NCBI GenBank assembly: GCA_977020255.1
Contig: CDROCS010004773.1
Location: 1 to 64,000 of the forward strand
DNA from: Obrimoposthia wandeli
Lineage: Eukaryota
Length of the DNA: 64,000 nt
Reading direction: 5' to 3'
The position numbers and the translations under genes are program-made. This document shows, one piece after another, positions 1 to 59,185 of this stretch (position 1 is the first letter of the stretch; each line of letters opens with the position of its first letter). Under the pieces are notes generated by a model. The model searched no databases. It had not been told where the DNA came from and saw only the letters and a program-made list of their open reading frames with translations.

Positions 1-299
1 TCTGTATAGAACTTACCAAAGTGCTTAGAATTTTATATATATTTTTAGAAATACGTACATAAACGTATTCGATATATTAGTCCACGTGAATTACAAAATG
101 TCACAACTAATTTCTACAGTAGAACAAGTTGTTTTTTTCTCGAATACAAAGAGGCATCAATCAAATACCTTCAGATGCGTGAGATTAGAAACTATATAAC
201 ACTAAGTAGGCCATTCGCTTACAGAACCGTTCTATCGAACTACGTTGGGGCCCTCCGCACATAAGAGGATCTGTACCAAGTTTCGTATGAAAACTAACA
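1..299 (+). repeat. 3' end of the 5' LTR of copy A
   Basis: Aligns with 21870-22173 and 62550-62857 (e.g. gttggggccctccgcacataagaggatctgtaccaagtttcgta), with many indels. Confidence 0.85.
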
Positions 300-339
300 T
301 ATAAGTGATTGCCGGAAGCAGGATGTCAATCCGGACACA

Positions 340-1440: not shown

Positions 1441-1891
1441 TGAGAATCGAGTGGATTGATACTCGAAGTAATTAATTGAATAAGTTAAGTCGGGAGACTA
1501 TTGTCATAAAACTAATTAAAAAGATAAAAATCATCGCTGAGTGATAAGTGAAGAGAGATCAGGTGGATTGATACTCGAAGTAATTAATTGAATAGGTTAA
1601 ATTAGGAGACTCTGTCCTCAGGCTAATTAAAGAGATAAAAAATCGTAAAATAAATTGTGAAATAAGATAAAAATAATAAGTAAATCGTAAACGAATACAT
1701 AAGTGAACAGACAACGAATAAATAAGACCACGTACTAATACTGAAGACAAAGTCAAATTCTGAGGAAGAGATAAATAATAATAAAGTTAACCGAATTGAA
1801 CAGGTTCCCAAACAGATAACAAAGTAACCAGAAAAGACTAGGAGTCGAAACGTATCAGAAAGAGACGTAAATCAATCAGCAGTTTCAACCG

Positions 1892-3260
1892 ATGGACAAT
1901 AGTTTTGATCTGACTGAGTTATTTCAGTGACATAAACCCAGAAGAAATTGATGATCTTGAGTTCAAACCAGAAGAAGTGAAATTGCCAATCAGTAGTGAT
2001 TGAAGAAGTTCAAGTAAATAATATTGAAGAATAGTTGAAGAAGAAATAGCTGAAAATATGGCTCACCCACAGGAGCTCAAGTAGATAATAATGCAGAAAG
2101 AAATAATGTGGTGACATGAATGCCGAGCAGTTGGCACAAGCTTTAAACGTCGTTGAGACCCAATTTTTCAGGATCATTGCAGATTACAAAGTTTTAAAGG
2201 AGATGAGGAGAGTATTTGTGACTTCCTCGCAGAATATTCGAGTTGTGCAGATGTTCAAGGATGGAGCACGATAAAAGAAAAATGTGTCGAGTACAGGCAT
2301 TTAACCGAGGGATTTAACGCAGGGAAGTGTATAAACATTTGACAGAAGCAGGAACGTTTAGACTGACAACGTTGGAAAATGCTTTTTATTGGAAATTGAG
2401 TAGTAGGAGACTTAGCCAAAATAAATAAGCGACTCATATGAGAGAACGGAAACAGAAACATGATGAGGCGTGAATGAATACATATGTTTTGAAACCTTTA
2501 CCAAGAGCGTACCCAAGAAGAATAATGAGAACTCCAGAAGGAATTACCAATAGCTCAAAAAGCACAAAATGACCGGAACCAAAATGAAATAGAGGTTTTG
2601 TTAGATATATTTGGGAGGATTGAGATATTAAAGTGTTATAGTATCAGTTACAAATGATTTTTACATTAATAAGTGCGAGGCGAGGAGATTGAAAAATATC
2701 AAATAGTGGCAATCTACTGTGGCTGCGGTGACGACGATAAAAGCAAGGTATTTGTGGGCAAAACAAGAACCGGTAATTTTCAGAATCAGTATGGACAAAA
2801 TAAGTTCGAAAAGTAGGTGGTCAGTAACTTGGAAATAGAGATAATTTCCCAGTAGAAGATCTGAATGATTCGAGGTAAATAATGGTGAGTCGTGGAACAG
2901 AATCGAGATGATTCAGAGGTAGAAATAATGATTCGTGGAATAGAAATGAAGAGATGATTTCAGGAATAGATTTAATGAGATAATTCAGATAACCGCTTGG
3001 AGAGACGATAGGAATTATAACCAACAGAGGGAGAGCAGTGACTCTCGATTTGGAAATAGCCTTTTCCCGGAAATAGTGACGGAAGATTCAGCCAATCGAG
3101 AAGCGGTTTTCCGAAATGATTTTCAGGGACGCTATGATAATGAACGAATGATCGTCAGTACAGTTCGAAGATGAACAAAATAGATAAGATATTCGAAGGA
3201 GAATAATGGTACACGTGTAGAAGCGAAGTGGGGTCACTATTCAGAATTGGGAACTAACAG
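1892..3260 (+). pseudogene. gag: gag-like region (frameshifted as read)
   Basis: Manual translation gives FKGDEESICDFLAEYSSCADVQGWST (~2190-2270), a Gypsy capsid-type motif, and a broken CCHC knuckle (YTC..E.GHYSR) at ~3205-3250. Confidence 0.6.
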
Positions 3261-5499
3261 ATTGGTAATTTCAGTAATAATAATTTTGAAATATTTATAG
3301 AGGATATATTCACACTACTTGGCAGGAATGAGGTGAGTGAGATATACTCCACAATAATGGAGACCAGCGATAATCCAGTATACAGATAGACAACAGTCAC
3401 CAGGTAGATACAATAACTATGCAGACCAGAAGACAGCAAGGAGCTGAGAGATACAATAATTACGTAGGACAGCAAGGAGCTGAGAGATATAATAATTCCG
3501 GTAAGATATAATAATAATAATGTCGACAAGACGACGATGATCGAGAGTTCACTTCGAAATAAAGAAAGGAAATTTTTAGTTATGTAAGCGATGACAGTGA
3601 TAAAGATCGAGACCAACTCGACGCGAAATAGATTTTGAAGAAGATAGTGATGATAAATTTAGGAACGAATGTTTAAGAATAATCAAAAAGATTCACCACA
3701 CAAAGATGGCTTGTGAGTCATCTACGTTGTCAGGAAACAAGAGAATCACACTCGAGAGATGAATGATTGTGAATAAAATACTGAGGAAGCGTATGAGACA
3801 CTTATTTAAACGTGTAACGCAGCCTATGACTGATCCGTAAGAAATGCTACGAGGTGTAAACATCATGGTGTTAAAGCTAAAGGAAACGATTGAATCAACT
3901 TAGTGAATGAAACAAAATTTGAAGCTCAAGAGTTTGGCCAAATTGCAAACAATTAAGTACCGATTGGAAGAAGTGCAGGCAGAATTAGTGGTTAAACATA
4001 GTCATGATAACTTGGGGTTACAGAAACAACCGGACGCTATTGAAGAGTTATGGTCGTTATGTGCAGAATCAAAACCAAAGGAACGATGAAAATTTCATAC
4101 AGTTAATTTCGGACAGATAATACATGAAAAGAAACTTAACGTGTATCAAAAACCGTTGAAACGATTCGAAAAAATTAGCCGAGAAACTTGAGGTGATGGA
4201 ATCAGATATGTTGTTCCATTATAGGGGAGATCACTAGACGATGAGGACGTACCAGTCAGTGTGGATATCCGATGAGGAAATGGTTGATGTCATCACTGTG
4301 GGACGGCGTCAAGAGTTAATGGGTAATGAAGAAGGGGATTAACCGAGATATTGAATTCTGCGTTAGAAATGATAAAAAACGCCTATAGAAATTTTACTAG
4401 ACAGTTCAAGCGAAAGCGGAGATAATGATGTGGCTACAGGCTTGGAATTAGAACATCACACAGAACCAGTACGGCGTAGCTGAATTACAGACATCTGGTT
4501 GAAAATGGGTTGACAACTCCGGTGGTCGAGGAACACAGAACCAGATATAATTCAATCCAGACAAGATGAAGTCACGGATACAGCTAATCAAGCGAGACAA
4601 AAAACCTTGTGGCAACTAGTAGGAAGACAGAAATCTCCGAATTATATTTAGATTCTGAATTTGGCATGCCGCATACAAAAGATGAACAAAGCAGAGCCAG
4701 ATGATGCGACAAAATGAAGAAGAGATTGGCCATGAAGAAGGACCAAGTCACGGAGATACAGTATGGCCAGTGAAACATGATCCAGGAAGAGAGATGAAAC
4801 TGAGTATCAGTATTTTCAGAAGAGGACCTGGAAGACCTAGAAAGAAGGCAAGTATATTACAGAGAGAAAATGTTCAACTGCACCCTGCAAACTGATGAAA
4901 GAGACATCTGATTGGACAGTTGGCACGTCATTGAAACGAAACATAGTGCAGAGAATGAAGATGATATCAGAGGTGATATGAATTCGGAAACTCAGTATTG
5001 TAAAGAATATACTTACGGGGAATTCTGCTCGGAAACAACAAGTGAAGCCGAAGTTGTTTAAAAACGCAGAGATGAAACAACCATTTGATATAACAGACAG
5101 TTATTCTAAAGCAGTCAGATGCAGATGTCTGCGGTAAAGAGATGACCGCGAGATCATGTGCCATTGCATCGATAGATAGATTTTATGACCTGGTGAGGGG
5201 TTTTAGCGAGACTATGTAAAACCAGACTAAATAAAGTTAATTACAGCGATGCATATCTATGATGACCAATTGACGGAACGAACAGCTAACCTCACGAAGT
5301 CAAACAAGGAATAAATGAAGCAAACCTGTATTTGATCGAGAATGTATTGAAAGACGAATCGACGAAAATGGAGGTTGGAAAAAATTAAGTGACTACGCTA
5401 AAACCATTGTGGAAATGAATGAAGACGATGACGAACAATGTCATGAGAATCGAAGATAAATCAAAGAGAAAATAAAACAATACCGTCAGAAAGAGAGAA

Positions 5500-7433
5500 A
5501 CAATCAACCCAAATATAATCACAACAATGATGATGATGAGTGTTAGTAATGTTCATGGGAATGCAACAGGCATCAGGATTGATAGCACTTTTAGCAGCAT
5601 ACCAAAGAAGATGGGACAAAAGTATTCACTGCTTGACAGCGAAGACTGCCATCCAGAATCACAACCGTCAAAATTAGAAGTTCAAGGTGTTGAAAACTTC
5701 TTTTGTATTATCAGGATGTTGGCCATAAAGTACAAGTAGAAGTGAAAGAATATGTTTCAATCCATTCAAGTTATCACGGAATTCTATTGTGGCCATAGAA
5801 GTTTTATGTCGGAAATCACACTACCACACCGTACAAAGCACATAAGGTTTTGCCGAGAGATTGCAAAGGCATTTCGAACGGGAACGATAGAAGTGAACAA
5901 GAATTACAAACCTGAAGTAAAATTGGGAGTGAGACGATACGAAACAGTCGAGAGTCAGTTAACCGATGGAGCTAGATGGATCTTGTGACGGAGAAACAAA
6001 AAACGTGCGTGGGACCAAAGTATCTGAGATAGTAAAGGATAAAACTTACAAAATCGAATTAAAAACTTGGACCGCCAATTTTGATAAAAGACACAACTAA
6101 TGATGAAGTATCCAGAATGTAAAATGACAATACATCTTGTTTTACGAGCGAATCCACAATTGTCATGAAGTGAATCGAAGCAATGCTCTTAGTATTTTGA
6201 AAGAGATTAATAGTTTAATAAAATAAAGGATTCCTGTATAATAGAGATGGAGAAGGGTTCTGTATAATAAAGTTGGAAAAGGATTGCTAAATGAAACAAG
6301 ACCAATTCCAATGACAAAGACACTTTTCTACACTGTTAATGGCAACATCAATAGAAGAAAGGATTGATATTTATTAAAAAAGAAAACAAAGCGCGATGCC
6401 AGGAATGCTATTTTATGCCTATCCAGGAATAGTTTTGTCCAAAGAAGCAATAGCACTTGGCAGAAACCAAGCTAGGCAAACCAAAAAATGCAGCTACACA
6501 CGTATTTTAATAATAAAATTGATTTCTATTATCATAAAGGATTGATGCAAATGGAACAGATTATATCGGATGATGATCGAAAGAGATTGCCAGCTAAACA
6601 AGAGATCGTAAGAACAAAGTTAGCATTAGCTATTACGAATCAGACATGGTAGCACCATTATTACCCTTGGATGAAGGAGTATTTGCTAAAACCATGGGAG
6701 AAGTATTGTATACTTACAAGTGTAATAAAGTAGAGGTACAGTTGAGAAAAACAGATCGATGTACGAGTGAATTGGCAGTAACGTATAATTTAAAAGATCT
6801 TTTTTGTTGAACCAATCACGAGAATGTTACTTCAAAAGACACTCAACTAAAGAAATCAGCTGCTCTAATATAATGGCACCTGAATATCAGATGACGAATG
6901 ATCTATGGATAACGTTACCTGATCGGAAGCCAACGAAACCCAGCATGATAAGAATGACGAATCTTAAGGTAAATGAAATTCAAGCAGCGGTGTGAAAATA
7001 TGGAGAACGCAGGATTGTACAATGAAAAGATTTAAAAGCGGCGTGGAACGAAATAATGTTTCCAGTAAGAAGAGCCAGAGTACTTACGGAGATGGTACAT
7101 CGAAACGCATTACCGCCAGGAGCTGGATATGCGAATTTCGATATGTTATTATCGCCAAGTCATTTCAAGGAAGCAGCATCAAGGCACTTAGAAAATGTGG
7201 AAATTCTTGTTTTTGGACAATTATTTTCGGGTATCATAGGTATATATATTATAATTAAATTTGTGCAGGTAATTATGGCCCAGGTGTTGTCTACGTATAG
7301 TTTATACAGGATAACAGGAATCACCCATGCAACTTATAATTGGATGTTTTCCATTTTATATCTAATGCACTATCATCACGAGAACGAGTTGCGAGCCCTC
7401 AAGAAGGAACAACACAAACGAGAACCATGGTGA
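5500..7433 (+). pseudogene. env: Env-like fusion glycoprotein resembling chuvirus-type G (frameshifted as read)
   Basis: Fragments SLLDSEDC, EFYCGHRS, LLPLDEGVFAKTMGEVLYTYKCNKVEVQLRKTDRCTSELAVTY, EPITRML..C..MAPEY..W, then a C-terminal hydrophobic block FGQLFSGIIGIYIIIKFVQVI. Family assignment is from motif recall, not a search. Confidence 0.7.
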
Positions 7434-7759
7434 TGCGAGAACCAAGAAACTATCTGAGACGACAACGACGACGATAATGATAGTCCAGGAGTATATGCAA
7501 AGATACCAGGAAAACCAAAGATTCGTTACCAGACAAGGAAGAAGTGGCGTTAAACCTATCCCATCAATGAAGGAACTAAGGAGGAGGAGAAGGAAAGAAG
7601 TTCAAGAGAGGAAAAGCATCGCAATACATAAAGATGATAGGAGAAGGCCTAAAAGAGTGAGCTACAGTGAAATTCCACAAGCAAGAGGAAAAAGACAAAA
7701 AAGATAATTCCAGAAGAATTCTGAAGTCTAGGATATCAAATGAGAATCAGGTAATGCTC

Positions 7760-8085
7760 CACCACAAGTAGCAGTAACATTGAACGGAAGAGAATACCTT
7801 GCCGAAGTTGATACCGGATCTGCAGTATCAGTACTGAGTAAAGAAATCTTCTCATCAAAAGAATTAAGAAGTATGTCTAGAAAACAGACATTTGTTAACG
7901 TGAATGGTACAGATGTAGTGTCGGAAGGAACACTGAAATGTTCATTGAATATCGATGGAAGAAACATTGCAGTTAAATGCTAGAATATTCACAGATTGCG
8001 GAAGTCAGTCATGATTGGGATGGACGTAATACGAATGTTTGAAGGAATAATTATACTACCAAACAACAAGAGTTATAAAGAATGA
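7760..8085 (+). pseudogene. Retropepsin-like aspartic protease 1
   Basis: VTLNGREYLAEVDTGSAVSVL...VNVNG. After one in-frame TAG (7981-7983) the frame continues NIHRLRKSVMIGMDVI (xIGxD motif). Confidence 0.8.
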
Positions 8086-8259
8086 CAGTTCAAAGTGAGA
8101 GAGATAAAAATGTTGAGAGGACCCATAGTCGAAAAAGGAAAAATGCACTACGTTCCGTATGGGAGGTTCAATACCCAGACAGAAAACAGGAAGCGCTAGT
8201 AAAGTCGATACTTCACTACAAAAATGTAAATTTCGGACCACAAGCTACGACGAGGAGAA

Positions 8260-9320
8260 AATAACATATGTGAATTTGTCAGAAAAAGATCCCATGAGAT
8301 TCGAGAGAAAGAGACGAAATATATTAGAACAGTACTATTCAAAGGAATGGCACGTAAAATGGCAAGATCAGGTTTAGAAATGTTAAACGCGACAAGTAGT
8401 TATGGTCATGAGGAAGTAGTACGATGCGTATGGTGTAGAGTAAAGTTCAGAGAATGGGAAAAGAATGAAAAAGCAATGAGACGTCATAAAAGAGATGCAC
8501 CAAATTGTCCATTTCTTTTGAAACTGAAAACGTCAAACGTACCAGAAATCCAAACAGGGAAAAGCACCCGATTTCGATTACAGTGACAGGGATTCCAAAG
8601 GAGAATCAGCTCTAATAACAGGAAGAGTAATAACGAATAGTCAATTGAAGATATATTCGAAGTTATGCGAGAAGTGAACGAATGTGACGAACAATATCGA
8701 GAAGTAACTTTCGAAGATCCAAGACTTAAAAAAATTGGCAAAAAGGGACTTTTTGCTATAAAAAAGGATGGTAAAGACGTAATTAAATGCCACAAGTGTA
8801 AAAAAGAACGAATTATCGACAGATATACTCTTGAGCTACCTAAATTTTACATCATGAATTTTTGCGAATTTTGTACTTTTTAAAAACAAAATAAAGCAAA
8901 AAAGAACAGAAAACAGAATGTATAATCGAATACCAAAATCACACGAAAAGAGATTTTGGCTCAACAAGACACACCGGTAGTGTCATTCGTGAGAAAAGGT
9001 TATATCCAAAAGAAGCAGAAAGAATCAGAGAATTGGTAGAATTAAAAAATAAAAACTACGCGAAACGGATACGGATCGATTTTTGAATTACTGCGAGATA
9101 AAGATGACAGTACAATTGAAACAAAAGAGAAGAGTACATAAATGAATTAGAATACGTACTAGAAAAGATCCGGAATGCGCAGTTTGCATGGTCAACAAAA
9201 TAGAAGTTGCCTTTCTACCATGCGGACATGTAAGAACATGTCGGAGATGTGCGAAATGAAATGGTATCATGTCCAATTTGTCGAAGAATAATAGATCGAC
9301 AAGTGAGAAACATTAGATTT
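8260..9320 (+). pseudogene. Inhibitor of apoptosis (BIR + degenerate BIR + C3HC4 RING)
   Basis: ORF 8347-8586 has the canonical BIR spacing C-x2-C-x16-H-x6-C (CVWC...H KRDAPN C). 8665-8883 has R.VTF...GLF..D.IKCHKC. 9175-9290 gives CAVCMVNKIEVAFLPCGHVRTCRRCA//CPICRRII. Confidence 0.85.
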
Positions 9321-9384
9321 CACTATCCAAACAAAGGGAAGTGGACTGACAGAGTGTAATAATTCGATAAATACAATATACCAT

Positions 9385-10176
9385 ATGGGAAACATAAATG
9401 GAGCACAGCGACCAGCAGCTATCATTAGAGTAAATAATTTAAGAGTAAAAGCCTTAATTGATACAGGTGCTGTAGCTTCGATAGTAAGTGAAGACTGTTT
9501 GACAGAGGAACAGAAACGAACAATGGCAGAACCAGATGAATTCTTGGTATCGGTCAATGGAGACCCTGTAAAAGTGACGGGAATATTACCATGTACATTT
9601 ATAATTGGACGTAATACGATCACTATACCAGTTAGAATCATGAAAGAATGTCCTGAACCTACAATTTTAGGAATGGATGTATTATCACAACTCAAAGGGA
9701 TAAGTATTGATTTACAAGATCCAAGATTGAAGGATAGCACATCAAACAGACAAATAAACCAAATTGATGTAATTATAGAGAATCCTATAAAAATCGGTAA
9801 AAGATCACAATTTCTCATTCAAGGTCACACATTATCAGAAGATAAAGGACCAGTTGTGTTCGAACCATCACGAGATTTCATAGAGAAATACGAATTACCA
9901 GTTGTGAGTACAGTATGCCTGATCGAAAACCACAAAATACCAGTTAGACTGATGAATACAACCAACAATGACATCCTATTATACAGAGGAATGAGGTTGG
10001 GAAAGATAGTACAAATGGAGAATCCCACCGTGTGTGCTATGAAACTCGATAAAGATACGAATGATTACGAAGAAATAGTAATCCAATCAGAAAGACTGAC
10101 AACTAGAGAAAAGAAACAATTACTTGATCTAATACATAAATTTCCGAAAGTAATTGCAAAAATCCATATGACATAG
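9385..10176 (+). CDS. pol: Pol N-terminus: retropepsin 2 plus spacer
   Basis: ALIDTGAVASIV and PTILGMDVL motifs. Confidence 0.9.
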   Translation: MGNINGAQRPAAIIRVNNLRVKALIDTGAVASIVSEDCLTEEQKRTMAEPDEFLVSVNGDPVKVTGILPCTFIIGRNTITIPVRIMKECPEPTILGMDVLSQLKGISIDLQDPRLKDSTSNRQINQIDVIIENPIKIGKRSQFLIQGHTLSEDKGPVVFEPSRDFIEKYELPVVSTVCLIENHKIPVRLMNTTNNDILLYRGMRLGKIVQMENPTVCAMKLDKDTNDYEEIVIQSERLTTREKKQLLDLIHKFPKVIAKIHMT

Positions 10177-10199
10177 GAGAAACACCTGTCATAAAACAT

Positions 10200-10970
10200 A
10201 CAATACCACTGACAGAAGACAAAGTAGTCAGAAGAAGACCATATCGAGTACCATTACAATTACAAGATGAAGTAAAAGTCAGATCGAAGATATGTCTAAA
10301 ACAGAGTAATTAGACCGAGTTTTCGCCATTCTCAGCACCTGTGGTGTTGGTAAAAAAGAAGGATGGGAAAATGAGATTCTGTATAGATTTCAGAGAACTG
10401 AACAAGATCACAAGAAAAGATGTGTATCCATTACTAGAATCGAAGAGATGCTCGATAAATTGGGTAATTCAGATTATTTACGACATTGGATTTGCAGAGT
10501 GGATACTGGCAAATCGAGATAGAGGAAGAGGATAAACACAAAACAGCCTTTTCCTGCGGAGATGGATTGTACGAATGCGAAAAGATGCCATTCGGACTGA
10601 CAGGAGCTCCAGCAACATTTCAGCGTTGCATGAATTTTGTACTCGCATCGTGTGCAAACACGATGGTTTATATTGATGACATAATAATATTTTCGAAAAC
10701 GTTCGAAGAACATTTAAAAAATCTTGAAGTTGTATTTAAAAAAGACTGGAAAACGCTAAATTAAAAGTTAAACCTACAAAATGCGAATGGGCTAAAGAGC
10801 GAGTAACATTTTTAGGACATATAGTATCGAAAGAAGGCATTCGACCTGATCCAGCAAAGATCGAGAAGTAAAAGCATTTAGCGCCAAAGACTGTTAAGGA
10901 GATACAGAGTTTTTGAGGTCTTGCGAATTATTATAGACGATTTGTTGAACATTTTTCAGATATAGCAACA
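10200..10970 (+). pseudogene. pol: Reverse transcriptase (frameshifted as read)
   Basis: [55 protein letters not shown]. Confidence 0.95.
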
Positions 10971-10973
10971 CCA

Positions 10974-11711
10974 TTGAGAAAGTTGACGAGAAAAGATGAG
11001 AAGTTCATATGGGGAGAAGAAGCCCAACAAGCGTTCGAGCATTTAAAAGAAAGACTGATAAAAGCACCAATATTAGCGTTTCCAGATATAAACCGACAAT
11101 TCATACTCATGACAGATGCAAGTAACTATGCTGTAGGAGCAGTATTGGGACAAGAGGATGACGAAGGAAGAGAACACGTCATCGCGTATGCGAGTAGAGG
11201 ATTAAACAGAGCCGAAAGAGGATACTCTGTTATCGAAAAGGAATGTCTAGCCATAGTGTATTCATGTAGACAGTACAGACACTACTTGCTAGGACAAAAA
11301 GTATTCCTATATACAGATCACAAACCACTACAGTTCTTGTATAAACATAGAGATGAGATGAGTAGATTAAACAGATGGTTCCTAAAATTAGCCGAATTCG
11401 ATCTAGAAATCCGTTATAGAACCGGAAAGTCGAACGGCAACGCAGATTGTTTATCGAGATTGACAAATGTAGACGAAAAAGGAAACATAATTCCAGAAGA
11501 AGATGAAACCAATGACCAAAAAGGAGAAGCAAATCTACTGACGATTTTGCTAAAGACGGGTAAAATAGACAAAGAGATCATCAAAGAACAGAAAGAAGAT
11601 GAAGAACTGAGTCTAATCAAAGAATTGTTGGTGAAAGGAGATCTAAACGATGAAATGACGAAAAAATACTCGATAAAAGAAGGAATCTTGTATATAATGT
11701 CGGAAAGATAG
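10974..11711 (+). CDS. pol: RT connection + Ty3/Gypsy RNase H
   Basis: LMTDASNYAVGAVL, YSVIEKECLAIV, YTDHKPL, NGNADCLSR. Confidence 0.95.
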   Translation: MRKLTRKDEKFIWGEEAQQAFEHLKERLIKAPILAFPDINRQFILMTDASNYAVGAVLGQEDDEGREHVIAYASRGLNRAERGYSVIEKECLAIVYSCRQYRHYLLGQKVFLYTDHKPLQFLYKHRDEMSRLNRWFLKLAEFDLEIRYRTGKSNGNADCLSRLTNVDEKGNIIPEEDETNDQKGEANLLTILLKTGKIDKEIIKEQKEDEELSLIKELLVKGDLNDEMTKKYSIKEGILYIMSER

Positions 11712-11731
11712 TAGTAGTAATTCCGAAGTCA

Positions 11732-13264
11732 TTGAAAACAGCAGTGATGATCCAGTATCACGACGGAACACTAGGAGGACATCTGTCAGGGCGAAAGACA
11801 ATAGCCAGAATCAAAGAGAAGTACCATTGGGATGGTATGGAAGACGACATAAAACAATGGTGTAAACAATGTAAAGTATGTTTAACCAGAAAAGACACCG
11901 GAACTCGTACTAAAGTTCCACTGAAACCAATGCCAGTTCCCTTGGCACCAATGGAATTCACAGCGATGGATATATTGGGACCATTGAGAGAATCAAGTAA
12001 AGGAAACAAGTACGTCATAGTATTTACGGATTACATGACGAGATGGGTAGAAGCATATCCCATGCAGAACCAGAAAGCTGAAACAATAGCGCAAATCTTA
12101 GTGGAAGAGATAATATTTCGATACGGAGTGCCCAGAAAGTTATTAACGGATCAAGGTAAGAACTTCACTGGAGAAGTCATAAAAGCAGTATCGAAGATAT
12201 TCGGAATCATGAAGTTACAAACTTCACCATATCACCCACAGACAGATGGTCTGGTAGAAAGGTTTAATAAAACTTTATGTATGATGGTACAATCCTATTG
12301 CTCAGACAAGCAAGAGGATTGGGATAAATATTTACCTTCATGTCTATATGCTTACAGGAATTCAGTTCGAGAGGCGACGGGTCACACACCATTCTATCTG
12401 ATGTATCTCAGACAGAACAATATGCCGATGGATCTGGAGTGGACCGAGCCAACATCTCAGTATCTAGAAACTGAACAATACATTGTCGTCATGAAGGAAA
12501 GATTACAAGATGCTTGGACCAAAGCCGGATTGAAGTTGAAATTCAATCAAGAAGGTTACAAGGAACAATACGACAAAAAAGCAAAACCACATGAATTTAG
12601 AGTCGGAGATCAAGTGATGATATTTTATCCAGTCATCGAACCAGGTCTATCGTTTAAACTTCATAGACCATACAAAGGACCATACAAGGTGATCCAGACA
12701 ACTTCAACAAATTTGAAAGTAATCAACGAAGAGAATCGGAACAAGGAACCGATGATTGTACATGCAAATCGATGCAAATTAGTACCAAATAAAGATAATG
12801 CGTCACGATATGAGTTAAGATCACAGAAATCGAAATCGAATACCAATACCATTAAACTTACACGAATGGTAAGTGATCGGAACTACATAAACATGATGAC
12901 GAGTGGTAGCGAGGAAAAACCAGCAAGAATTGGTATGCTCAGAATGAAGTACCAAGAGGAAAAGGAAGTAATCCGACACATCGCACCACAAGAGATATTA
13001 GAAGAAGACGAAGAGATAATAGTCGTTTTCGAAAAAACACAACCAACAGATGTAGCTAAAGAAGTCATTGTGAAAGATGCACTAACAAACGAATTTCTGT
13101 GCGAACTTAGAGTGTCATACTATGACGGGAATACACTAGTCGCAGCGCTTTATCAAAATTCCAATGTGTTTACGACTGAGAAAGTGATAATCGAAATCAC
13201 ATTGACACCAAACATAGTTGCATGGCAGAACTATGACAGTACTGAAGCAGGACTAGCCAGTTAG
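11732..13264 (+). CDS. pol: Integrase (HHCC, DDE core, GPY) with C-terminal extension
   Basis: YHDGTLGGH...CKQC, AMDILGPL, LLTDQGKNF, TDGLVERFN, PYKGPYKV. Confidence 0.95.
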   Translation: MKTAVMIQYHDGTLGGHLSGRKTIARIKEKYHWDGMEDDIKQWCKQCKVCLTRKDTGTRTKVPLKPMPVPLAPMEFTAMDILGPLRESSKGNKYVIVFTDYMTRWVEAYPMQNQKAETIAQILVEEIIFRYGVPRKLLTDQGKNFTGEVIKAVSKIFGIMKLQTSPYHPQTDGLVERFNKTLCMMVQSYCSDKQEDWDKYLPSCLYAYRNSVREATGHTPFYLMYLRQNNMPMDLEWTEPTSQYLETEQYIVVMKERLQDAWTKAGLKLKFNQEGYKEQYDKKAKPHEFRVGDQVMIFYPVIEPGLSFKLHRPYKGPYKVIQTTSTNLKVINEENRNKEPMIVHANRCKLVPNKDNASRYELRSQKSKSNTNTIKLTRMVSDRNYINMMTSGSEEKPARIGMLRMKYQEEKEVIRHIAPQEILEEDEEIIVVFEKTQPTDVAKEVIVKDALTNEFLCELRVSYYDGNTLVAALYQNSNVFTTEKVIIEITLTPNIVAWQNYDSTEAGLAS

Positions 13265-13342
13265 GAAGAGAAGGAACCGGCCGGTGGTCACATACTGCAT
13301 GGTACACCAAAAAGACTCAAACAAGAATACCACGATGTAATA

Positions 13343-15211
13343 ATGGTATTACGTAATTCACATGGGAAAAGAGATATCATGAGAGTCCATTTAATCGACG
13401 CTGACACTGAAAAGATAATTTGTCAGATGGACACCAAATACTTTGATGGAAAGACAATTGTATGTTGTATACCAGAATCTCACCGGTTAGACACAGATCA
13501 AACGGAAGTATCTGTAAGGTTGAGCGTAATAGAAGGATTTCATTCGCTAAACCATCCGGAAGTGACTAACAATAAAATCATCAAAGCAACGGCAGAGTTA
13601 CGCATTGACAGCGGATACCGGAAGTGGGAAGCTAAAAATAAAAAACCACAAAGAATCAATATGATCCGAGAACAAGTGACCAACTCAATCCAGCCAAAAT
13701 ATCATGCTGAAATAGTATCATCCGCGCCAAGTGTAATTACATCGATAAACGACGAAATTATAATTTTACTAAAAAATCGATGGCCGTCATCAACTGAGAT
13801 ACGAGTAAACTTAATTAATTATGCGAAGACACCGATATCTAAGCTGAATGTTACCTATTTCGATGGATTGTCCATCATGGGTAAATTAGAAACAATTGTC
13901 ATGTGCTATGGAGCACAGTTCCAAGTTGAGATACTTAAAGACAGTGTAATACCGTATCCAATTCACAAATACGAAGGGGAAATCAATCCAATTATTCTAA
14001 CCCCTTCATTAATTTCAGTTCAGACAGACATACCAGAATACCCTTCGAGCGAGTCTAGTGAAGACAGCGAACCGGAAAGTAACGATACAGAATCAACAGA
14101 ATCCGAAGATAACATAATAGAGCGATTCGGAAGAACCATGGAGGTTGAATTCGCTAAAGAGAACAGAAAAAGACAAAACATAGAATTCGTGAAACAGAAT
14201 ATACAAGAAAGACGAATTAAATCTGCAGAAGAGACCGAGTCGGAAGAAGACTCAACAAAGGAACAGACATCAGAGACAAAGATGAATATCTCTCCAGCAA
14301 TACGAATGCTGAGAGGAAAGAAACTGGCAAAACTATCTAACATCGACGAACAGATAGAGAAGAGATTAGAAAGACTAAAACTTGAAGAGTCAGAATTAAT
14401 GCCACCAATGAGTGAGATCATTCCAGGTAAGTTATACCTCGGAAATGTGGAGGATGCAACAGATGAAAAGAAACTGTTGGAACAAGGGATAACATACGTG
14501 ATCAACGTTACAATGAATCACAAATCACAATATCAGACGATCAGAGCCATGACATTAAGAGTAAAAGACTCAATGGATGCTAATCTTCTCGAATGGTTCG
14601 TAGAAACAAACGAAATACTTCACAGAGAACTCCGGAACCAAGGAAAAGTGTTGGTACATTGTCAGAAAGGAATTTCTCGATCAGCAACTCTAGTATTAGC
14701 ATACCTAATAAAGACTAGACGAATGCAGGTACTAGAAGCGCTAAAATACCTACAGGAGAGAAGAAGTATTGCAAACCCAAATCTTAATTTTTTGGGACAG
14801 TTGGCAAATTACCAACTTCTGTTGCAAGAACAAAGACGGATGGACGACATTCCTGAGGATCCAAAGGAAAAGAATTTCCTCCAAGCATTATCATTGACCG
14901 GGTTATTCTTAGCCGGAGTCGACAAAATTACACAGATAATGCCAAAGGTATTTTTATGTCATCCAGGAGATATAGATACTGCTGGATTAAAGTTCCACAG
15001 TATCAACCGAGTAATCAACATTGTTGAAGTCGGAAACGAAATAATCAGTCTGTGTCAAAATACTGAAGATGACACCACTCGATACATACACGCTTCCAAT
15101 CGAGAAATAAACGATGCACAACAACATCTGACGAAATTGACTCAAACCATCCAAGCTGAAGTCACAGAAGGAAACGGCGTTCTGATATATCAGAAAAAGG
15201 TACGATGTTAG
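13343..15211 (+). CDS. Accessory polyprotein: repeated ~90-aa domains, acidic linker, dual-specificity phosphatase, start of a pseudophosphatase
   Basis: SEIIPGKLYLGN...GITYVINVT...VLVHCQKGISRSATLVLAYL...PNLNFLGQL (CX5R intact, Cys at 14660). A second DUSP-like unit starts ITQIMPKVFL. Same frame as the integrase ORF, separated by one TAG. Confidence 0.9.
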   Translation: MVLRNSHGKRDIMRVHLIDADTEKIICQMDTKYFDGKTIVCCIPESHRLDTDQTEVSVRLSVIEGFHSLNHPEVTNNKIIKATAELRIDSGYRKWEAKNKKPQRINMIREQVTNSIQPKYHAEIVSSAPSVITSINDEIIILLKNRWPSSTEIRVNLINYAKTPISKLNVTYFDGLSIMGKLETIVMCYGAQFQVEILKDSVIPYPIHKYEGEINPIILTPSLISVQTDIPEYPSSESSEDSEPESNDTESTESEDNIIERFGRTMEVEFAKENRKRQNIEFVKQNIQERRIKSAEETESEEDSTKEQTSETKMNISPAIRMLRGKKLAKLSNIDEQIEKRLERLKLEESELMPPMSEIIPGKLYLGNVEDATDEKKLLEQGITYVINVTMNHKSQYQTIRAMTLRVKDSMDANLLEWFVETNEILHRELRNQGKVLVHCQKGISRSATLVLAYLIKTRRMQVLEALKYLQERRSIANPNLNFLGQLANYQLLLQEQRRMDDIPEDPKEKNFLQALSLTGLFLAGVDKITQIMPKVFLCHPGDIDTAGLKFHSINRVINIVEVGNEIISLCQNTEDDTTRYIHASNREINDAQQHLTKLTQTIQAEVTEGNGVLIYQKKVRC

Positions 15212-15378
15212 CGCCTACCATAGGTGTATCCTTGTTGGTAGAGTACCATGGTCACACGCCAGAAGAAGCGATGGTCTACATCAAACAGAATAGACCAAAT
15301 ACGGAATTCAAACCGTTACTCGTTCGAGAAATAGAAAAAATACACCGAAAAGAGGAAGCAACAACGAGAAACAAATGA
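14920..15378 (+). pseudogene. Second, catalytically dead DUSP-like domain
   Basis: After a 1-nt shift at ~15198 it reads GVLIYQK-GTMLAPTIGVSLLVEYHGHTPEEAMVYIKQNRPN, with no Cys or Arg in the P-loop position. Confidence 0.65.
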
Positions 15379-15391
15379 AGCTACAACAACA

Positions 15392-16021
15392 GTGCCCAGC
15401 TTTCAATACCAAAGATTGTTAGCGATAGGCTTGTTAAGTTGTCTAATGCCAATAACGGGAGCACAAGAAATAGGCTCCAACCACGGAAATAGTTCCTGGT
15501 TCAACGAAATCCACAACTACACCATACAGTACCATACGCCGGCACTGATGATGCTATTAGTGTTGTTAGGACTAATTGATGTGTGGATCATCCGAAAATG
15601 TCTTCGATCTATGAGAACCGACAGTAAAAGATTTCAGTTTGTAAAGATGAAAAGACCAAATGGACCAACGAACAAAGTGCTTGTGTATCTAGACGAAAGG
15701 ATCGAGGACAACATAGTAAATGAAGCGATATTTTACCCACAAAACAGAATACTGAATCAATTTCGAATAGATTACGAAGCTGACCGACAGCGCACACTTG
15801 ACCGAATATCAACAACATTCGCCGGATGCAAGCGAAGAAAACGAGTTGTAAAGGAAATACAAAAAGATGCTGATACAAAAGGACCAACGTATATATTCGA
15901 CGGCGATGTCATCAAAACACGTGAGTATGGAAGTAAGAGAGTAATAATTGAAACGATGGAAGGACATAAAACATGCTTGTCCGCCAAAAATGGATTCGGA
16001 AAGTTGACGATACAAAGGTAA
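15392..16021 (+). CDS. Putative membrane protein of unknown function (no ATG; possibly part of the polyprotein)
   Basis: 209-codon open frame with a signal-like segment LLAIGLLSCLMPITGA and a TM-like segment ALMMLLVLLGLIDVWII. Confidence 0.5.
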   Translation: MPSFQYQRLLAIGLLSCLMPITGAQEIGSNHGNSSWFNEIHNYTIQYHTPALMMLLVLLGLIDVWIIRKCLRSMRTDSKRFQFVKMKRPNGPTNKVLVYLDERIEDNIVNEAIFYPQNRILNQFRIDYEADRQRTLDRISTTFAGCKRRKRVVKEIQKDADTKGPTYIFDGDVIKTREYGSKRVIIETMEGHKTCLSAKNGFGKLTIQR

Positions 16022-16061
16022 CCCGGTACAGTTAATTATCGGAAGAAATGGAATCGAGGAG

Positions 16062-18080
16062 ATGTCAAAACAACGACAGACAACAAAACGATCCAATCAG
16101 AAACAGATATCTCTCAAACGATTGATAATTAAAACCCTTTGCAAAAGGTCAGTCAAGGCCCTGTGCACCGTTGCACAAGGATTGATCTATGGAGTAGTAA
16201 TTGGATTGGTACTGCAAGCCATGCCAACCAGTAAAGCCGAATTGATGACACTATCTGAATATAATTTACATTTGAGAAATCTAGACAACACCCTAGAAAT
16301 AATCAAGACATCCCACAGTAAAGCCGTGATGATCATGTGTGTAAAAGGATGTCCAGGACGAATGTGTATAGTCCCAGCGACCGAAATGATAACACTTAAT
16401 GGACATTATGGAATTAGTGTTGTCACATGTGAAGACTACATATTTGGACAAACTAAAATAGTGCTTCTCAGTGACATGTCCAACCAAAGTGCACACAAAT
16501 TTAAAATATTAACCATCAAGAGTAAAGGAATACCAGCAGTACGTTACGGTATTCTAGAATTGGTTAATCCGATACTCGCACTGATCATTGGATTTATAAT
16601 ATTAATATTACTCATCTTGTTTTGTTGTACAAAGATAGAGTTGAGATCAAAAAAGAAACGTCATGATCTCGCAAGACGAACAGGTCAAATGAATTTACAA
16701 AAATTCAACACAAGTATACCAAGACCACCCTTCCTAGATGAACCAGCACCAGAGTACCAGCCAACGATATATGAACATATCGAGGAAAGACCGTACTATA
16801 TGAGTAATTTGAGTTGTTTCATTGAAGTTCCTGAGTTTAGGAATCGAACGATCATAGGAATCATGCTGATCATACAAATTACCACTACCAAGGCTAGTTA
16901 TGTGATCATGATCAGTAAATGGAGACAAGATGTAATACGGGCGTTATACATAGAAATCCCTTTATTAAAAACAAATCACGTAGTAGACATTCATCTACAG
17001 ACGTCAGCAACCGACAATATCGATCAGAAATTGTATGTCATCCGACAGGTCAGAATAAAGATCGACCAAAATACACCCGATTACAATTTAATATTATTGT
17101 ATCATGAAAAAGTGTTATACCTACGGATAACAATATCGAAGAGGAAGCGGATTATCCAAAGTATCCGAACAAAGTCATTAATATTGCCTAGAGATGAACG
17201 CATCTGGAAAATTGTCGACAGGATTATGATCACAGGTAGACGACGTAAAGCCGTATGGAATTCCGTTAGGATATTTTTCAGATTGCTAGAAACTGACAAA
17301 GTAACAGTAATGTGTCCCAACCCAGATGGCGGAATCAGATTCGAAATCCAAAGCCAAAAGTTAGTACCACATTTTAACACGGAATGTCTGTGTAATCGAA
17401 TTTCCAGTAATACTACAGAGACCTCGACCATAATCATGATAATAACAGGTGAAATATTCTACATAACTCTAAGATACCAGAACCGTCGATTTCGTAGATC
17501 CGGTATAAGTATCAAACCCAGGAAAATCATTCCCAAAAGGCCAATCCTAGTCAGAAAGAAGGCAAAAGTAAACGAAAGTAAACGCCATTCCAAAAAACCG
17601 ACAGTGATCAGAACAAAGACAGAAGCGAAAGAAAAAGAGCTCAATCCCAGAAACCAAAGTACAATTATTAAGAGGACAAGAGTGAGGGGAACGATCCCAC
17701 TAGATCCCAAACATCATTTCCAATCCAAAATAATAATACCTGTTCCATCAGAAACAAAACACCCAAATCCACGAATTTTTAGAAAATCGGACATAATACA
17801 TGGAAACCGATCAAAACCCATGGAAATGTCATTTGAACCGACAAACAACAAAATGAAGTATGATTATAAATCATCAGACAGCGGAATAACAACGGTCAAT
17901 GCCCTAATTGGAATGGCCGTAGTGTCAACAACAGTGGTTCTATTGACAGTCGTGTGCGTAAAAGGCAGTCAAGTATGCCCAAGAATACGACGAAAATGCG
18001 AAGGATTGCGATGCTGTGACACACCCATCATGGAGGAAGTGGAATTGCGACCCTTACCTCCGCCTTCCATCAAGATATGA
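16062..18080 (+). CDS. 672-aa multi-membrane-segment protein of unknown function
   Basis: Long intact ORF with four hydrophobic segments (GLIYGVVIGLVLQA, ILALIIGFIILILLILFCC, IIGIMLIIQITTTKA, ALIGMAVVSTTVVLLTVVCV). Confidence 0.7.
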   Translation: MSKQRQTTKRSNQKQISLKRLIIKTLCKRSVKALCTVAQGLIYGVVIGLVLQAMPTSKAELMTLSEYNLHLRNLDNTLEIIKTSHSKAVMIMCVKGCPGRMCIVPATEMITLNGHYGISVVTCEDYIFGQTKIVLLSDMSNQSAHKFKILTIKSKGIPAVRYGILELVNPILALIIGFIILILLILFCCTKIELRSKKKRHDLARRTGQMNLQKFNTSIPRPPFLDEPAPEYQPTIYEHIEERPYYMSNLSCFIEVPEFRNRTIIGIMLIIQITTTKASYVIMISKWRQDVIRALYIEIPLLKTNHVVDIHLQTSATDNIDQKLYVIRQVRIKIDQNTPDYNLILLYHEKVLYLRITISKRKRIIQSIRTKSLILPRDERIWKIVDRIMITGRRRKAVWNSVRIFFRLLETDKVTVMCPNPDGGIRFEIQSQKLVPHFNTECLCNRISSNTTETSTIIMIITGEIFYITLRYQNRRFRRSGISIKPRKIIPKRPILVRKKAKVNESKRHSKKPTVIRTKTEAKEKELNPRNQSTIIKRTRVRGTIPLDPKHHFQSKIIIPVPSETKHPNPRIFRKSDIIHGNRSKPMEMSFEPTNNKMKYDYKSSDSGITTVNALIGMAVVSTTVVLLTVVCVKGSQVCPRIRRKCEGLRCCDTPIMEEVELRPLPPPSIKI

Positions 18081-18203
18081 TGAGTCAGAGGAGGTTGTAG
18101 ATAAATTAGTGTGTGAAATATGTAGAAATATCTAGAAGCGATTGTACAAATAGTAGAAATATATAAAACTCATGTAGAAATTAATTCTCATCATGTATTT
18201 AGA

Positions 18204-18503
18204 ATGTCCGAAGAATGCCCAATATGTTTGGAAGATCTAACCGAACGAAGAACAAGACCCGAAACCTGCAACCATTTACACCACGAGGAATGTTTATCGA
18301 CATGGATCAGAACTTATGGACAGTTCGGACATCCAACATACCCTTGTTGCCCTGTATGCAGAAGACAATTCGCAAGATTCATCATGTTAGAACCCAACCA
18401 AGAGGATGTATATGTACAGGTGGTATTCTGTTGGAAGAATTTCGGAGAGTGTTGGTGTTATTACTGTTTGTCAGAACGACAAAATCCGACCACTTTTGTG
18501 TAA
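18204..18503 (+). CDS. RING-H2 protein 1
   Basis: CPIC...CNHLHHEEC...W...CPVCR. Confidence 0.85.
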   Translation: MSEECPICLEDLTERRTRPETCNHLHHEECLSTWIRTYGQFGHPTYPCCPVCRRQFARFIMLEPNQEDVYVQVVFCWKNFGECWCYYCLSERQNPTTFV

Positions 18504-18563
18504 ACATCACACAACCACCAGTCCTCAATCGAGCCCAAATTCAACATCAACCCTCTCACAGTA

Positions 18564-18869
18564 ATGTCTGGAGAATGTTCCATCTGCTACGAGAGCATCG
18601 TGGACTTCTACACCAAGCCCAACAACTGCGACCACCTCTTCCACGTCGAATGCCTCGAGACGTGGATCCCCATCGCAAACAGCAACAATCCCCTCGACTT
18701 CCCAACCTGCCCGATGTGCAGAGCGACCTTCTCAGTACACTACGTGTACAACCAGGACAGCCTCCAAGCAGTGATACCCATCGTACACTGCTGGAAAACC
18801 ATCTGCGATTGCTGGTGCTCGTTCTGCGTGGAGGAGCGAAGCACAGGCCAGCCCAATTCCCAACAATAA
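18564..18869 (+). CDS. RING-H2 protein 2
   Basis: CSIC...CDHLFHVECLETW...CPMCR. Confidence 0.85.
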   Translation: MSGECSICYESIVDFYTKPNNCDHLFHVECLETWIPIANSNNPLDFPTCPMCRATFSVHYVYNQDSLQAVIPIVHCWKTICDCWCSFCVEERSTGQPNSQQ

Positions 18870-19208
18870 TCGAAGGTAACTTTCTGACTTGAACGTGACA
18901 TCATGAACTACCCTGTGTATCGCATACCGCGATAAATTAGCTACCATAATTGTAATCATAATTATATAATCTTGTGAACTGTAAATTGACCATTACCATT
19001 TTTATGTATGATGTTTAACTGAAATTGTAATTATTATACTGAAATTCTAAAAAGACAATTTTTATGCTTAGTGTGAATGCGTAAACATGCCTAAAATCGG
19101 AACAAAACTCGGTAGGATTAAATAACTAAGGATTCGTTTTGAAATAAAATTTAAATTAACGATGAGAACGGTGAACCCCAAATTGAAAGGAGTTATTTTC
19201 TTGTGCAG

Positions 19209-19739: not shown

Positions 19740-20564
19740 TAACGTTAAATCCTTTCCTCCCTTCTTTCCTTCCTAATTCTTAATTTATTCATGTAGATTT
19801 TTTTGTGTATAAGTAATAATGTATGGTTTGAGACTTGCTCCAAATTATACATTATGATTCCCACTAAAAACTGGGGTTTTGAGAATTTTTTTTTGGGCAT
19901 GTTTGATGAGTTGAATGATTGATTTTGTAGGGATGAACCTAAAATCAACAGCCAGAGGCTTGTATAAGTAAAATCGATACGTTCCGGGGACGTAACTTTT
20001 TTGGAACCCCCGAGGTATGTTAGGTTTGAGAATTAAGAAATTAAAATATTTTAGTCGATTAAATACTAAAATAAAAATCCTTGAAAGCAAGGTTGAAAAT
20101 TAAATTAAATATTAATTTTAGATTCAAAATTGAAATTAGTGGAAGTTAGGGTAAAAATTAGGAGGACCACGAAGGTCGTGTATAGTGTAAGATATATATA
20201 AGTTAAATTAATTAACCCAAAAGTGCAACAAAACACATTAATAAAAGAAAAAGGAAACGTCAATTAAAGAACGTCAATTAAGGTAAGCACATTTTCGTGC
20301 AGTGAGTTAAAATTAATTTTCAGCTGTTCAATATTGCTGAATTCCTATAAGCCGGAAGAGCAGGAACACTCAAGAGTTGATTGACAACTCATAGCGAATA
20401 TAAAAGAGTCGCTGACGAAGTGAACACAAACCAGAACGAAAATTAGCTAGGAATCAATATCACCTGAAGTCTACGGAGCGGAATCTTGGTAAGTAGGAAT
20501 TTGGGTTGCATTTATAATCAATAATTTAGATTGCCGCATATAACTGATTAGAAGAAGCTAATTG

Positions 20565-21140
20565 TCAGTTTTAAAAGGAATAATCATCAATTGCCAGTTT
20601 AAAAGGAATAATCATCAATTGCCAGTTTAAAAGGAATAATCATCAATTTCCAGTTTAAAAGGAATAATCGTAAGTTGCCAGTTTTAAAGAATAATCGTTT
20701 ATTGTCAGTTTAAAAGGAATAATCGTAAATTTCCAGTTTTAAAGAATAATCGTTTATTGTCAGTTTAAAAAGAATAATCGTAAATTTCCAGTTTTAAAGA
20801 ATAATCGTTTATTGTCAGTTTAAAAAGAATAATCGTAAATTGCCAGTTTTAAAGAATAATCGTAAATTGACAGTTTTTAAAGAATAATCGTTTATTGTCA
20901 GTTTAAAAGGAATAATCGTAAATTGACAGTTTTTAAAGAATAATCGTTTATTGTCAGTTTAAAAGGAATAATCATCAATTGCCAGTTTAAAAGGAATAAT
21001 CGTAAATTGACAGTTTTTAAAGAATAATCGTTTATTGTCAGTTTAAAAGGAATAATCATAAATTGCCAGTTTTAAAGAATAATCGTTTATTTTCAGTTTA
21101 AAAAGAATAATCGTCAATTGCCAGTTTTAAAAGAATAATC
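20565..21140 (+). repeat. LTR-A minisatellite, ~28-bp unit
   Basis: gtttaaaaggaataatcatcaattgcca and variants. Confidence 0.9.
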
Positions 21141-21260
21141 GCCTATCGATAAACCTTCGAAGACGATCACACCAGTTCGTCAGAACTACATACGGATCCA
21201 GTACCGGATTGACGCAGTCGCAGCTAGTCGCAGCATATCGGTAAGAACACCGACTAGAGC

Positions 21261-21695
21261 ATTCATTGCCCCTAGTTGGCAATTAGGATACATTCATTAC
21301 CCCTTGTTGGTAATTCGAAATTTTAACATATTAACCAGATTCATTGTCCCTAGCTGACAATTAGGATTGCTGTCTCTTTAACCAAATCATTGTCCCTAGT
21401 TGGCAATTAGGATTGTCCATTTTATTCATTGTCCCCAGCGACAATTAGGAATTGTACCAGTTTTTCCCGTAAGATTCATTGTCCCTAGCTGACAATTCGG
21501 TTCACTCATTGTCCCTAGTTGACAATTCGGAACAAATACTCATTGTCCCTAGTTGACAATTCGGTCCACTCATTGTCCCTAGTTGACAATTCGAACCAAC
21601 ACTCATTGTCCTAGTTGACAATTCGGAGTAAGTTTTCATTGTCATCGTTGACAATTAGGTTTTTAGGAGAATCATTGTTCACAGTGGACAATTCG
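21261..21695 (+). repeat. LTR-A array of 12 palindromic ~27-nt cores with variable spacers
   Basis: tcATTGTCcctagytGACAATt(a/c)gg x12, counted by eye. Confidence 0.9.
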
Positions 21696-22249
21696 TGGTT
21701 AATATACAACAGATAGAGTTACGGATTCAAGAAGCTTTATCCACACATAAGAAGTAGAATCGAAGAAATTTAAGAGAGTTGCGTTATAGATTAACCAACC
21801 TAAGAAGAAGAATAACCCTAAAATCTCGATCACCCGAACGTAAAATCGATACGTGGTTCATCCCCACTTCTTGTAGAGACTTACAGAAGTCTTAGGAATT
21901 TTACCATACTTTTTAGAAATACGTACATAAACGTATTGTTGTGTTAGTTACGTGAATTACAAATAAACAATTTCCTACAGTAGAACAAGTTGTTTTTGCA
22001 CCCTTCAGAATAAGAGACATCAAATCAAATACCTTCAGATAGTACAAGAGATTAGGCAACCATAACACTAAGTAGGCCACGACCAACTTTAAGACCTGCT
22101 TCTAATCGAACTCACGTTGGGGCCCTCCGCACATAAGAGGATCTGTACCAAGTTTCGTAATGAAACCCCAACAGCTTAAATATTATTTTTTAGTTTGCCA
22201 AAAGACAAATATGACTCCAAAACAGTTTTCGCGGATAACTTAGCTGTTG

Positions 22250-55840: not shown

Positions 55841-56295
55841 ATGCAGGAATATATCATAGATTTTGAGGCTTTTATTAACAAAAATGGGGATTATGTTATA
55901 AAAGAATTATGTATTATGGATGTATGCAACGTTTTTTATCCATTGCATTTCATATTTCAAATATCTATCCCGTTTAGGAGTTGAGATTATAAGAAAAAAT
56001 TTACTAATTTATATCTACTAATTACTTTCATTTATTAAAATGGAAAGAAGGACATAAGGCTTTTTGTGAAATATGTATTTTCGATACAATAAAATCTAAT
56101 TTTGATATAGAAAATGGAATTTTTTATGTTTTAGATGAAATGGATAGCAAAAAGTATAAGACTTTAAAAAAATATTTTCCCAAATTAAGGTTGAATACTT
56201 TAAATATTTTACGTGATCATATATTAAAAATTCCACGAAATATTTGCTGTCCATATCGTAATCATGGTGACCATTGCGCATATAAAAATGTTTAA
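55841..56295 (+). pseudogene. Small Polinton-type DEDD/exonuclease-like ORF, disrupted
   Basis: MQEYIIDFEAF...YVIKELCI..HFIF, then after a shift FHLLKWKEG...CPYRNHGDHCAYKNV*. Confidence 0.55.
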
Positions 56296-58191: not shown

Positions 58192-58199
58192 GTTTATTT

Positions 58200-59099: not shown

Positions 59100-59185
59100 T
59101 ACAACAATTTGAATAGAAAGAAAATTTAAATTTAGGTAAAGAAGGCTTAGCACCCATATCTTTAGCTGATTTTTGAAATAATTGT

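Follow-up and report, generated by a model that had tools for sequence, protein, structure and literature searches.

What does a giant retrotransposon carry behind its integrase? The question is raised by a stretch of 64,000 nucleotides from Obrimoposthia wandeli (assembly GCA_977020255.1, contig CDROCS010004773.1, positions 1 to 64,000; hereafter the window), the first third of which is occupied by a copy of a giant Gypsy-type retrotransposon whose integrase is followed by three related domains, here called repeats 1 to 3 (Table 1). Giant Gypsy elements of this type are already known. Only a few retrotransposons have cargo reported to alter host cell survival; Burro-type elements belong to these, and about half of the Burro-type polyprotein is without annotation. 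It is tentatively proposed here that the repeats are conserved domains of a Burro-like Gypsy polyprotein, predicted to form IPT/TIG sandwiches, and that they probably constitute a cytosolic protein-binding module for a neighbouring pair of phosphatases. A triplet of immunoglobulin (Ig)/IPT-like domains beside a phosphatase resembling MAP-kinase phosphatases (MKPs) would provide a testable handle on the host pathway manipulated by a 5,000-copy element.

The initial annotation described three tandem copies of a domain of about 90 amino acids. The three peptides on which this description was based, together with the Y(Y/F)DG motifs, which lie exactly where they had been placed, share one plus-strand frame. 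In pairwise local alignment, the repeats score 86, 56, and 56, values matched by 0, 1, and 1 of 5,000 shuffles, respectively, and when the entire post-integrase region is aligned to itself, left against right and unguided, the best score is 90, compared with at most 64 in shuffles (0/300); self-similarity is thus significant. Comparison of the sets of copies with hhalign links repeats 1 and 2 with a probability of 88% (E 3e-6), repeats 2 and 3 with 64% (E 6e-5), and repeats 1 and 3 with 11% (E 0.003). The likeness is greatest across the first ~60 residues. As the repeats are only 19-25% identical to each other, the triplication appears to be old, and none of the 20 largest of the 41 DNA-level repeat families in the window covers the triplet region. 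The three copies are therefore real, but their order is not strictly head to tail because a spacer of ~30 residues separates repeats 2 and 3.

In the window copy, a TAG stop between repeats 1 and 2 closes the integrase frame after repeat 1, and repeats 2 and 3 begin a separate frame of 648 codons shared with the phosphatase. This stop is private to the copy, as either a mutation or a base-call error. Position 13262 is open in all 29 closest siblings, 10 of which are stop-free over 4.1 kb; among 90 further loci, some of which overlap the same copy, it is open in 88, unreadable in 2, and stopped in none. Moreover, at the base of the stop, the window disagrees with more than 99.8% of the contig depth (two runs, one sample). 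Programmed read-through was considered and is ruled out by the absence of the stop from 29/29 and 88/88 readable siblings and from that share of the depth. The fusion of the repeats to the integrase, as originally claimed, thus holds for the family (all 117 readable sibling loci are open), but not for the window copy, in which only repeat 1 is left in frame. Frameshifts are also present in this copy near 11690, 15190, and 15335. Comparison with the siblings shows 115 gap openings per 2 kb close to the contig start and 0-3 in each 2 kb past 12 kb, and the apparent decay of the 5' part (1-8000) may largely be assembly error at the contig end.

The interruptions differ in place among five siblings, and of the 150 listed copies, 3 have no stop over 5,478-5,497 aa; the family therefore encodes one polyprotein (~5,480 aa), which extends from about 1640 to 18077 in the window and has three RING open reading frames (ORFs) and then a long terminal repeat (LTR) of 2.15 kb downstream. 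In this polyprotein, the repeats lie after the integrase and before one intact and one pseudo dual-specificity phosphatase. The order of Pfam matches in the window is env (Monjiviricetes fusion), BIR, protease, RNase H, integrase, dual-specificity phosphatase, and RING fingers; sibling stretches, in which gag, the ubiquitin-like domain, and the IAP-type RING of the upstream part were read, supply a CCHC knuckle, a weak ubiquitin-like domain (PF00240, E 0.019; PDB ubiquitin variants, E 0.004), a second protease, and the RING. In particular, env (PF24664, E 9e-95) is located upstream of the protease in a frame shared with the CCHC knuckle, and BIR (PF00653, E 2e-8) and RING (PF13920, E 6e-12) precede pol in a sibling stretch. 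Two aspartic-protease domains (7744-7980 and 9424-9700), both with an intact DTG, flank the BIR-BIR-RING block. The ~900-residue tail (15335-18077) gives a faint match to the orthoreovirus p10 FAST fusogen (E 0.006).

A motif pattern that fits repeats 1 and 2 finds 10,162 matches in the genome, compared with 2 for a control, so the family comprises at least ~5,080 copies. Of 30 loci found by this pattern, 29 were aligned, plus one short locus, and all belong to the same family (86-98%). No diverged subfamily was found in the genome via the phosphatase domain (DSPc), env, a foreign integrase, or the motif pattern (30 loci checked for each, all with 85-98% DNA identity). Since the loci checked all came from the same family, the alignment of the repeats is shallow.

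Planarian Burro/GYPSM1 elements encode a polyprotein of ~5,000 aa comprising gag, a ubiquitin-like domain, env, BIR, and protease-reverse transcriptase-RNase H-integrase (PR-RT-RH-IN), and they are present in thousands of copies (PMC6431247). The element described here shares with them the single polyprotein (5,478-5,497 aa vs. about 4,900-5,100), the Gag CCHC knuckle, the copy number in the thousands, the ubiquitin-like domain (as a weak match), an in-frame env of the mononegavirus type located between gag and pol, BIR, and PR-RT-RH-IN. However, it is ~24 kb long with 2.15-kb LTRs, whereas Burro exceeds 30 kb; it is for this reason called Burro-like and is not assigned to Burro1-4 proper. The ankyrin, MATH, BCL2-like, and dUTPase-like parts named in Burro (PMC6431247) gave no Pfam or PDB sequence match in the present element; the published calls relied on HHpred. 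The same paper names no Ig/IPT repeats and does not contain the word 'phosphatase', which is also absent from the accessible part of PMC13524379, and in the available sections of PMC8532177 the expression of Burro1 is the sole Burro topic. In the literature searched, neither Ig/IPT repeats nor phosphatases were found described for elements of this kind, although the primary Burro papers (Grohme 2018; Lee 2026) may bear on it.

Selection on the repeats was assessed in 59 siblings and the window copy, which were picked by likeness to the window or to a phosphatase model and are thus not a random sample. Among variants shared by at least 4 of the 60 sequences, the ratio of nonsynonymous to synonymous polymorphism (pN/pS) is 0.06 in repeat 1 (4 nonsynonymous, 21 synonymous), 0.14 in repeat 2 (11 and 20), and 0.08 in repeat 3 (5 and 19); phosphatase 1 has a value of 0.08. 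Singleton variants in the repeats have a pN/pS of 0.45-0.58. The low ratios of the shared variants indicate purifying selection on all three repeats, which are thus kept as protein in the replicating lineage.

The initial annotation had also raised the possibility of an integration-targeting module; in that case, the repeats would remain on the integrase and guide integration, a role played by chromodomains in chromoviruses. The repeats are indeed in frame behind the integrase in the family, and IPT domains are found in chromatin-bound factors (excerpt of PMC7128310). Moreover, chromodomain Gypsy integrases also carry an extra domain directly C-terminal to the integrase, although the repeats differ from it in fold, are present in three copies, and are followed by ~1,350 further residues (accessible part of PMC13524379). 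Nevertheless, this explanation is improbable and the weakest of those considered, since the nearest integrase relatives bear unrelated cargo and the repeats run into phosphatase domains. Five metagenome relatives with 50-62% integrase identity have a similar integrase end, which is followed by different cargo (a beta-rich protein with a membrane anchor, or a protease) or by unassigned sequence with none that can be recognised. Because the cargo differs between relatives, the slot behind the integrase is best regarded as a variable cargo slot in the lineage rather than as a targeting module. Furthermore, an uncleaved product would pull the phosphatases and membrane segments along with it, and the R-Y-x-L-R motif at the integrase end would be a simpler tether. 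This motif is common to the window and the integrase relatives P0001, P0002, and P0004, and YxLR occurs within 90 aa in 6 of the 61 relatives with a locatable integrase end. Foamy virus Gag has a Tyr/Arg nucleosome anchor (excerpt of PMC12125541), which R-Y-x-L-R-S (12806-12823) resembles; by analogy, the motif could be a true chromatin tether. Behind the integrase of P0002 and P0003, the nearest relatives (59-62% integrase identity), a stretch that by eye resembles a signal peptide precedes a beta-rich region and a single transmembrane helix, apparently a cell-surface protein fused to the integrase; in P0004, the integrase runs on into an aspartic protease.

An AlphaFold model of repeat 2 (42 natural rows) consists of seven strands (pLDDT 61.5, pTM 0.56), and Foldseek with this model returns Ig-like chains exclusively (best E 0.001), with the DBB domain of BCAP at rank 6 (E 0.003, 17% identity; structural Z 6.0). 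In a non-redundant structural search with repeat 2 over 48,161 representatives, of which the top 50 rows were assessed, IPT carriers account for 14 rows, all at Z 5.8-6.9 (plexins, Met, EBF, NF-kB, RBPJ); three of the titles name IPT and the remaining rows we take to be IPT carriers. The 14 rows are a plain count, not an enrichment measured against the number of IPT chains among the representatives. In particular, EBF1 reaches Z 6.5 (root-mean-square deviation 3.1, 81 aligned residues), the IPT domain of plexin A1 Z 6.5, and p52/RelB Z 6.3. A redundant search places IPT-carrier chains in 23 of the top 50 rows, and the ESM Atlas labels 29 of 30 matches of repeat 2 as TIG, with values of up to 0.92. 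On the basis of this model, the repeats very probably adopt an Ig fold, and the IPT/TIG subtype is somewhat favoured; for repeats 1 and 3, the predicted fold is inherited from repeat 2 by homology alone. The resemblance to IPT/TIG domains proposed in the initial annotation is therefore supported as far as the Ig-like sandwich is concerned and leans to the IPT subtype, but it has no counterpart at the level of profiles. Specifically, the repeats share with IPT/TIG domains (PF01833; RHD_dimer PF16179; found in NF-kB, NFAT, EBF, CSL, and plexin/Met) a length of ~95 residues, a predicted seven-stranded Ig sandwich, an I-x-x-x-x-P start, and an array arrangement as in plexins. They differ in having no sequence or profile match and no adjoining DNA-binding domain and in being borne by a retroelement. 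The Y(Y/F)DG turn is not known as an IPT signature.

No Pfam family matches the repeats in the window or sibling stretches, nor were they recovered when the genome was searched with PF01833, PF16179, and PF14545; the search with PF14545 (DBB) found nothing at all, and its control was silent as well. No homologue of the repeats outside this genome was found among 377 candidates of 1,135-3,240 aa or, at E 0.001, among 1.84 billion representatives, and the repeats are absent from the 120 integrase relatives listed of 884. Among PDB sequences, the only match was PUF60 (E 0.02), which was rejected as it drops to E 0.23 with a larger alignment. The only matches in a viral fold library were to Ig-like phage proteins without a name, and none of them reached E 0.001. 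Six loci of the assembly (L076, L080, L081, L085, L091, and L092) hold long, intronless, bacterial-like TIG-bearing frames, which suggests that bacterial contigs are present in the assembly.

It may be asked whether the repeats are Ig-like but non-IPT domains (FN3-, filamin-, or carbohydrate-module-like) or a generic spacer or stalk with no specific partner. Such an explanation is rather doubtful, although it ranks second. Z scores are tied across unrelated Ig sandwiches, and P0002 and P0003 carry in the same slot a beta-rich stretch with a membrane anchor, for which there is a faint match to fn3_2 (E 0.69). Filamin and laforin/carbohydrate-binding modules are unnamed among the top structural rows, an absence that does not count decisively against either. 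However, the ESM Atlas and the structural search both lean to TIG, hhalign relates the repeats to the P0002/P0003 stretch with a probability of only 0.06%, and the amino-acid constraint on the repeats equals that on the phosphatase.

The initial annotation had likened the repeats specifically to Rel/NFAT factors and suggested a decoy function. The likeness is not specific at this level: EBF, plexin, BCAP, and bacterial Ig rows are tied within about 1 Z, and the Rel/NFAT rows are no higher than those of EBF, plexins, or bacterial proteins. The corresponding explanation is that a Rel/NFAT-class IPT domain was captured and triplicated, so that the repeats would act as stand-alone decoys of the dimerisation domain of a Rel-homology factor (NFAT5-like or divergent NF-kB-like), poisoning its dimers and, with the MKP-like phosphatase, switching off a transcriptional stress or immune response of the host. 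NF-kB/NFAT dimerisation domains are frequent among the structural neighbours of repeat 2. The assembly holds an NFAT5-like IPT split over two exons and another that is presumably CSL-like; a search for full-length NFAT5 relatives found nothing. Intron-split IPT exons, the NFAT5-like ones among them, mark the host as an animal. Repeat 1 is acidic, with 6 basic and 18 acidic residues, which would suit a decoy that does not bind DNA. In addition, planarian genomes have Rel-homology domain factors, including a conserved NFAT5 (excerpt of PMC13563047). Against this, no sequence or profile link leads from the repeats to any IPT, and mimicry of one interface would not need three copies diverged to ~20% identity. 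A decoy function is thus unlikely, though less so than integration targeting; if true, it would represent a transposon-encoded transcription-factor decoy in thousands of copies.

Several lines of evidence place a docking or dimerising function for the repeats first, albeit tentatively. TIG is a promiscuous dimerisation module that also occurs in a cytosolic signalling regulator, and BCAP provides a precedent for a cytosolic, non-DNA-binding TIG dimerisation module (both from an excerpt of PMC7128310). The repeats resemble the DBB domain of BCAP/BANK1/Dof in this respect (same excerpt), but the dimer-stabilising C-terminal helices of BCAP are not predicted after repeat 2. A homodimer prediction of repeat 2 scored 0.00, with the fold uncertain. 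From the integrase through phosphatase 2, the maximum 19-residue hydropathy is 1.32 and no membrane segment is found, so the repeats are expected on the cytosolic side together with the enzymes. Phosphatase 1 is predicted to be of the MKP type, as its HCQKGISRS loop and general-acid aspartate align with those of DUSP10. Moreover, the BIR/RING cargo of Burro1 has been reported to protect stem cells from apoptosis (excerpt of PMC13465017, which cites another paper for this). The TIG precedent, the Burro1 cargo, the cytosolic side, and the variable cargo slot together support the docking module. According to this model, a single host domain would have been captured long ago and then triplicated. 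The element protease would cut the polyprotein behind the integrase, and the freed repeats might bring the MKP-like phosphatase to signalling proteins of the host by docking or dimerisation, whereby stress-kinase and cell-death responses would be damped in the element-expressing cell. Such damping is consistent with the BIR/RING and RING cargo of the element.

A number of results weigh against the docking module or the fold on which it depends. The confidence of the repeat 2 model is moderate, as given above, and a single-sequence model of repeats 2-3 is poor (pLDDT 34). The best row of the structural search is the bacterial S-layer protein SbsC (Z 7.3, root-mean-square deviation 3.8, 96 aligned), and every Z is below 8; the structural check thus yielded Ig neighbours throughout, but IPT was not distinct among them. 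Recognition of repeat 2 by the ESM Atlas is 2087, under the 2300 mark, and no usable Atlas match was found for repeat 1. In hhalign comparisons with 13 TIG/IPT stretches of the assembly, which involve shallow profiles, the probability is 0.2% and is equalled by 10 of 100 column shuffles. The acidic linker has a pN/pS of 0.15 among shared variants and is thus also constrained; selection therefore shows coding, not a special role. One candidate protease junction lies behind the integrase and another separates repeats 2 and 3; both resemble the sites flanking protease 2. However, a junction motif trained on the two flanking sites gives 2 further matches with ~1 expected, which is not significant; an earlier result of 0/2,000 was circular because the pattern had been chosen after the sites were seen, and linker conservation gave no discrimination for protease junctions.

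Table 1. Features of the window, with positions counted from its first nucleotide.
Feature	Position	Strand	Remarks
End of 5' LTR	1..293	+	truncated by contig start
Upstream polyprotein	1640..11710	+	fragmented in window copy; gag zinc knuckle, ubiquitin-like, env (Monjiviricetes fusion), protease 1, BIR, RING, protease 2, reverse transcriptase, RNase H
Integrase (H2C2, rve, C-terminal domain)	11720..12823	+	terminal R-Y-x-L-R-S motif
I-N-M-M, weak candidate protease junction behind integrase	12887..12898	+	similar I-N-M-I at 13655 between repeats 2 and 3
Repeat 1	12965..13255	+	acidic; YYDG at 13118; Ig/IPT-like, predicted via homology to repeat 2
In-frame TAG stop	13262..13264	+	private to window copy (mutation or base-call error), from sibling comparison
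Repeat 2	13286..13618	+	YFDG at 13439; AlphaFold model, seven strands, pLDDT 61.5
Repeat 3	13706..14011	+	YFDG at 13856; predicted fold by homology to repeat 2
Acidic, charged linker between repeat 3 and first phosphatase domain	14012..14398	+	
Dual-specificity phosphatase 1	14432..14815	+	intact HCQKGISR loop; best solved matches MAP-kinase phosphatases (DUSP10, E 4e-25)
Second phosphatase-like domain	14900..15330	+	catalytic cysteine loop absent in sibling; frameshift near 15190 in window copy
C-terminal polyprotein part	15335..18077	+	four hydrophobic (membrane or signal) segments; no family match
Three separate RING-finger ORFs	18126-18500, 18504-18866, 19155-19736	+	
3' LTR	20018..22173	+	TG...CA, ~2.15 kb
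Polinton/Maverick-like integrase	58617-59210	-	
Adenovirus protein X-like ORF	59189-59527	-	
A32-like ATPase pieces	59697-60392	-	

Other elements are found further along the window. Within 43273-46696, a minus-strand ORF of 414 aa, which has no Pfam match, resembles by eye the endonuclease end of an R2/NeSL-type non-LTR element, and it adjoins a 3' fragment of the giant Gypsy family (tail of the third RING and LTR). Polinton/Maverick-like remnants occupy 53700-60400. A second copy of the family begins in the last part of the window (60645-64000), where its 5' LTR precedes a primer-site-like TGGTGCCCCG stretch and a leader with tandem repeats of 20-22 and 49 bp that is cut by the window end.

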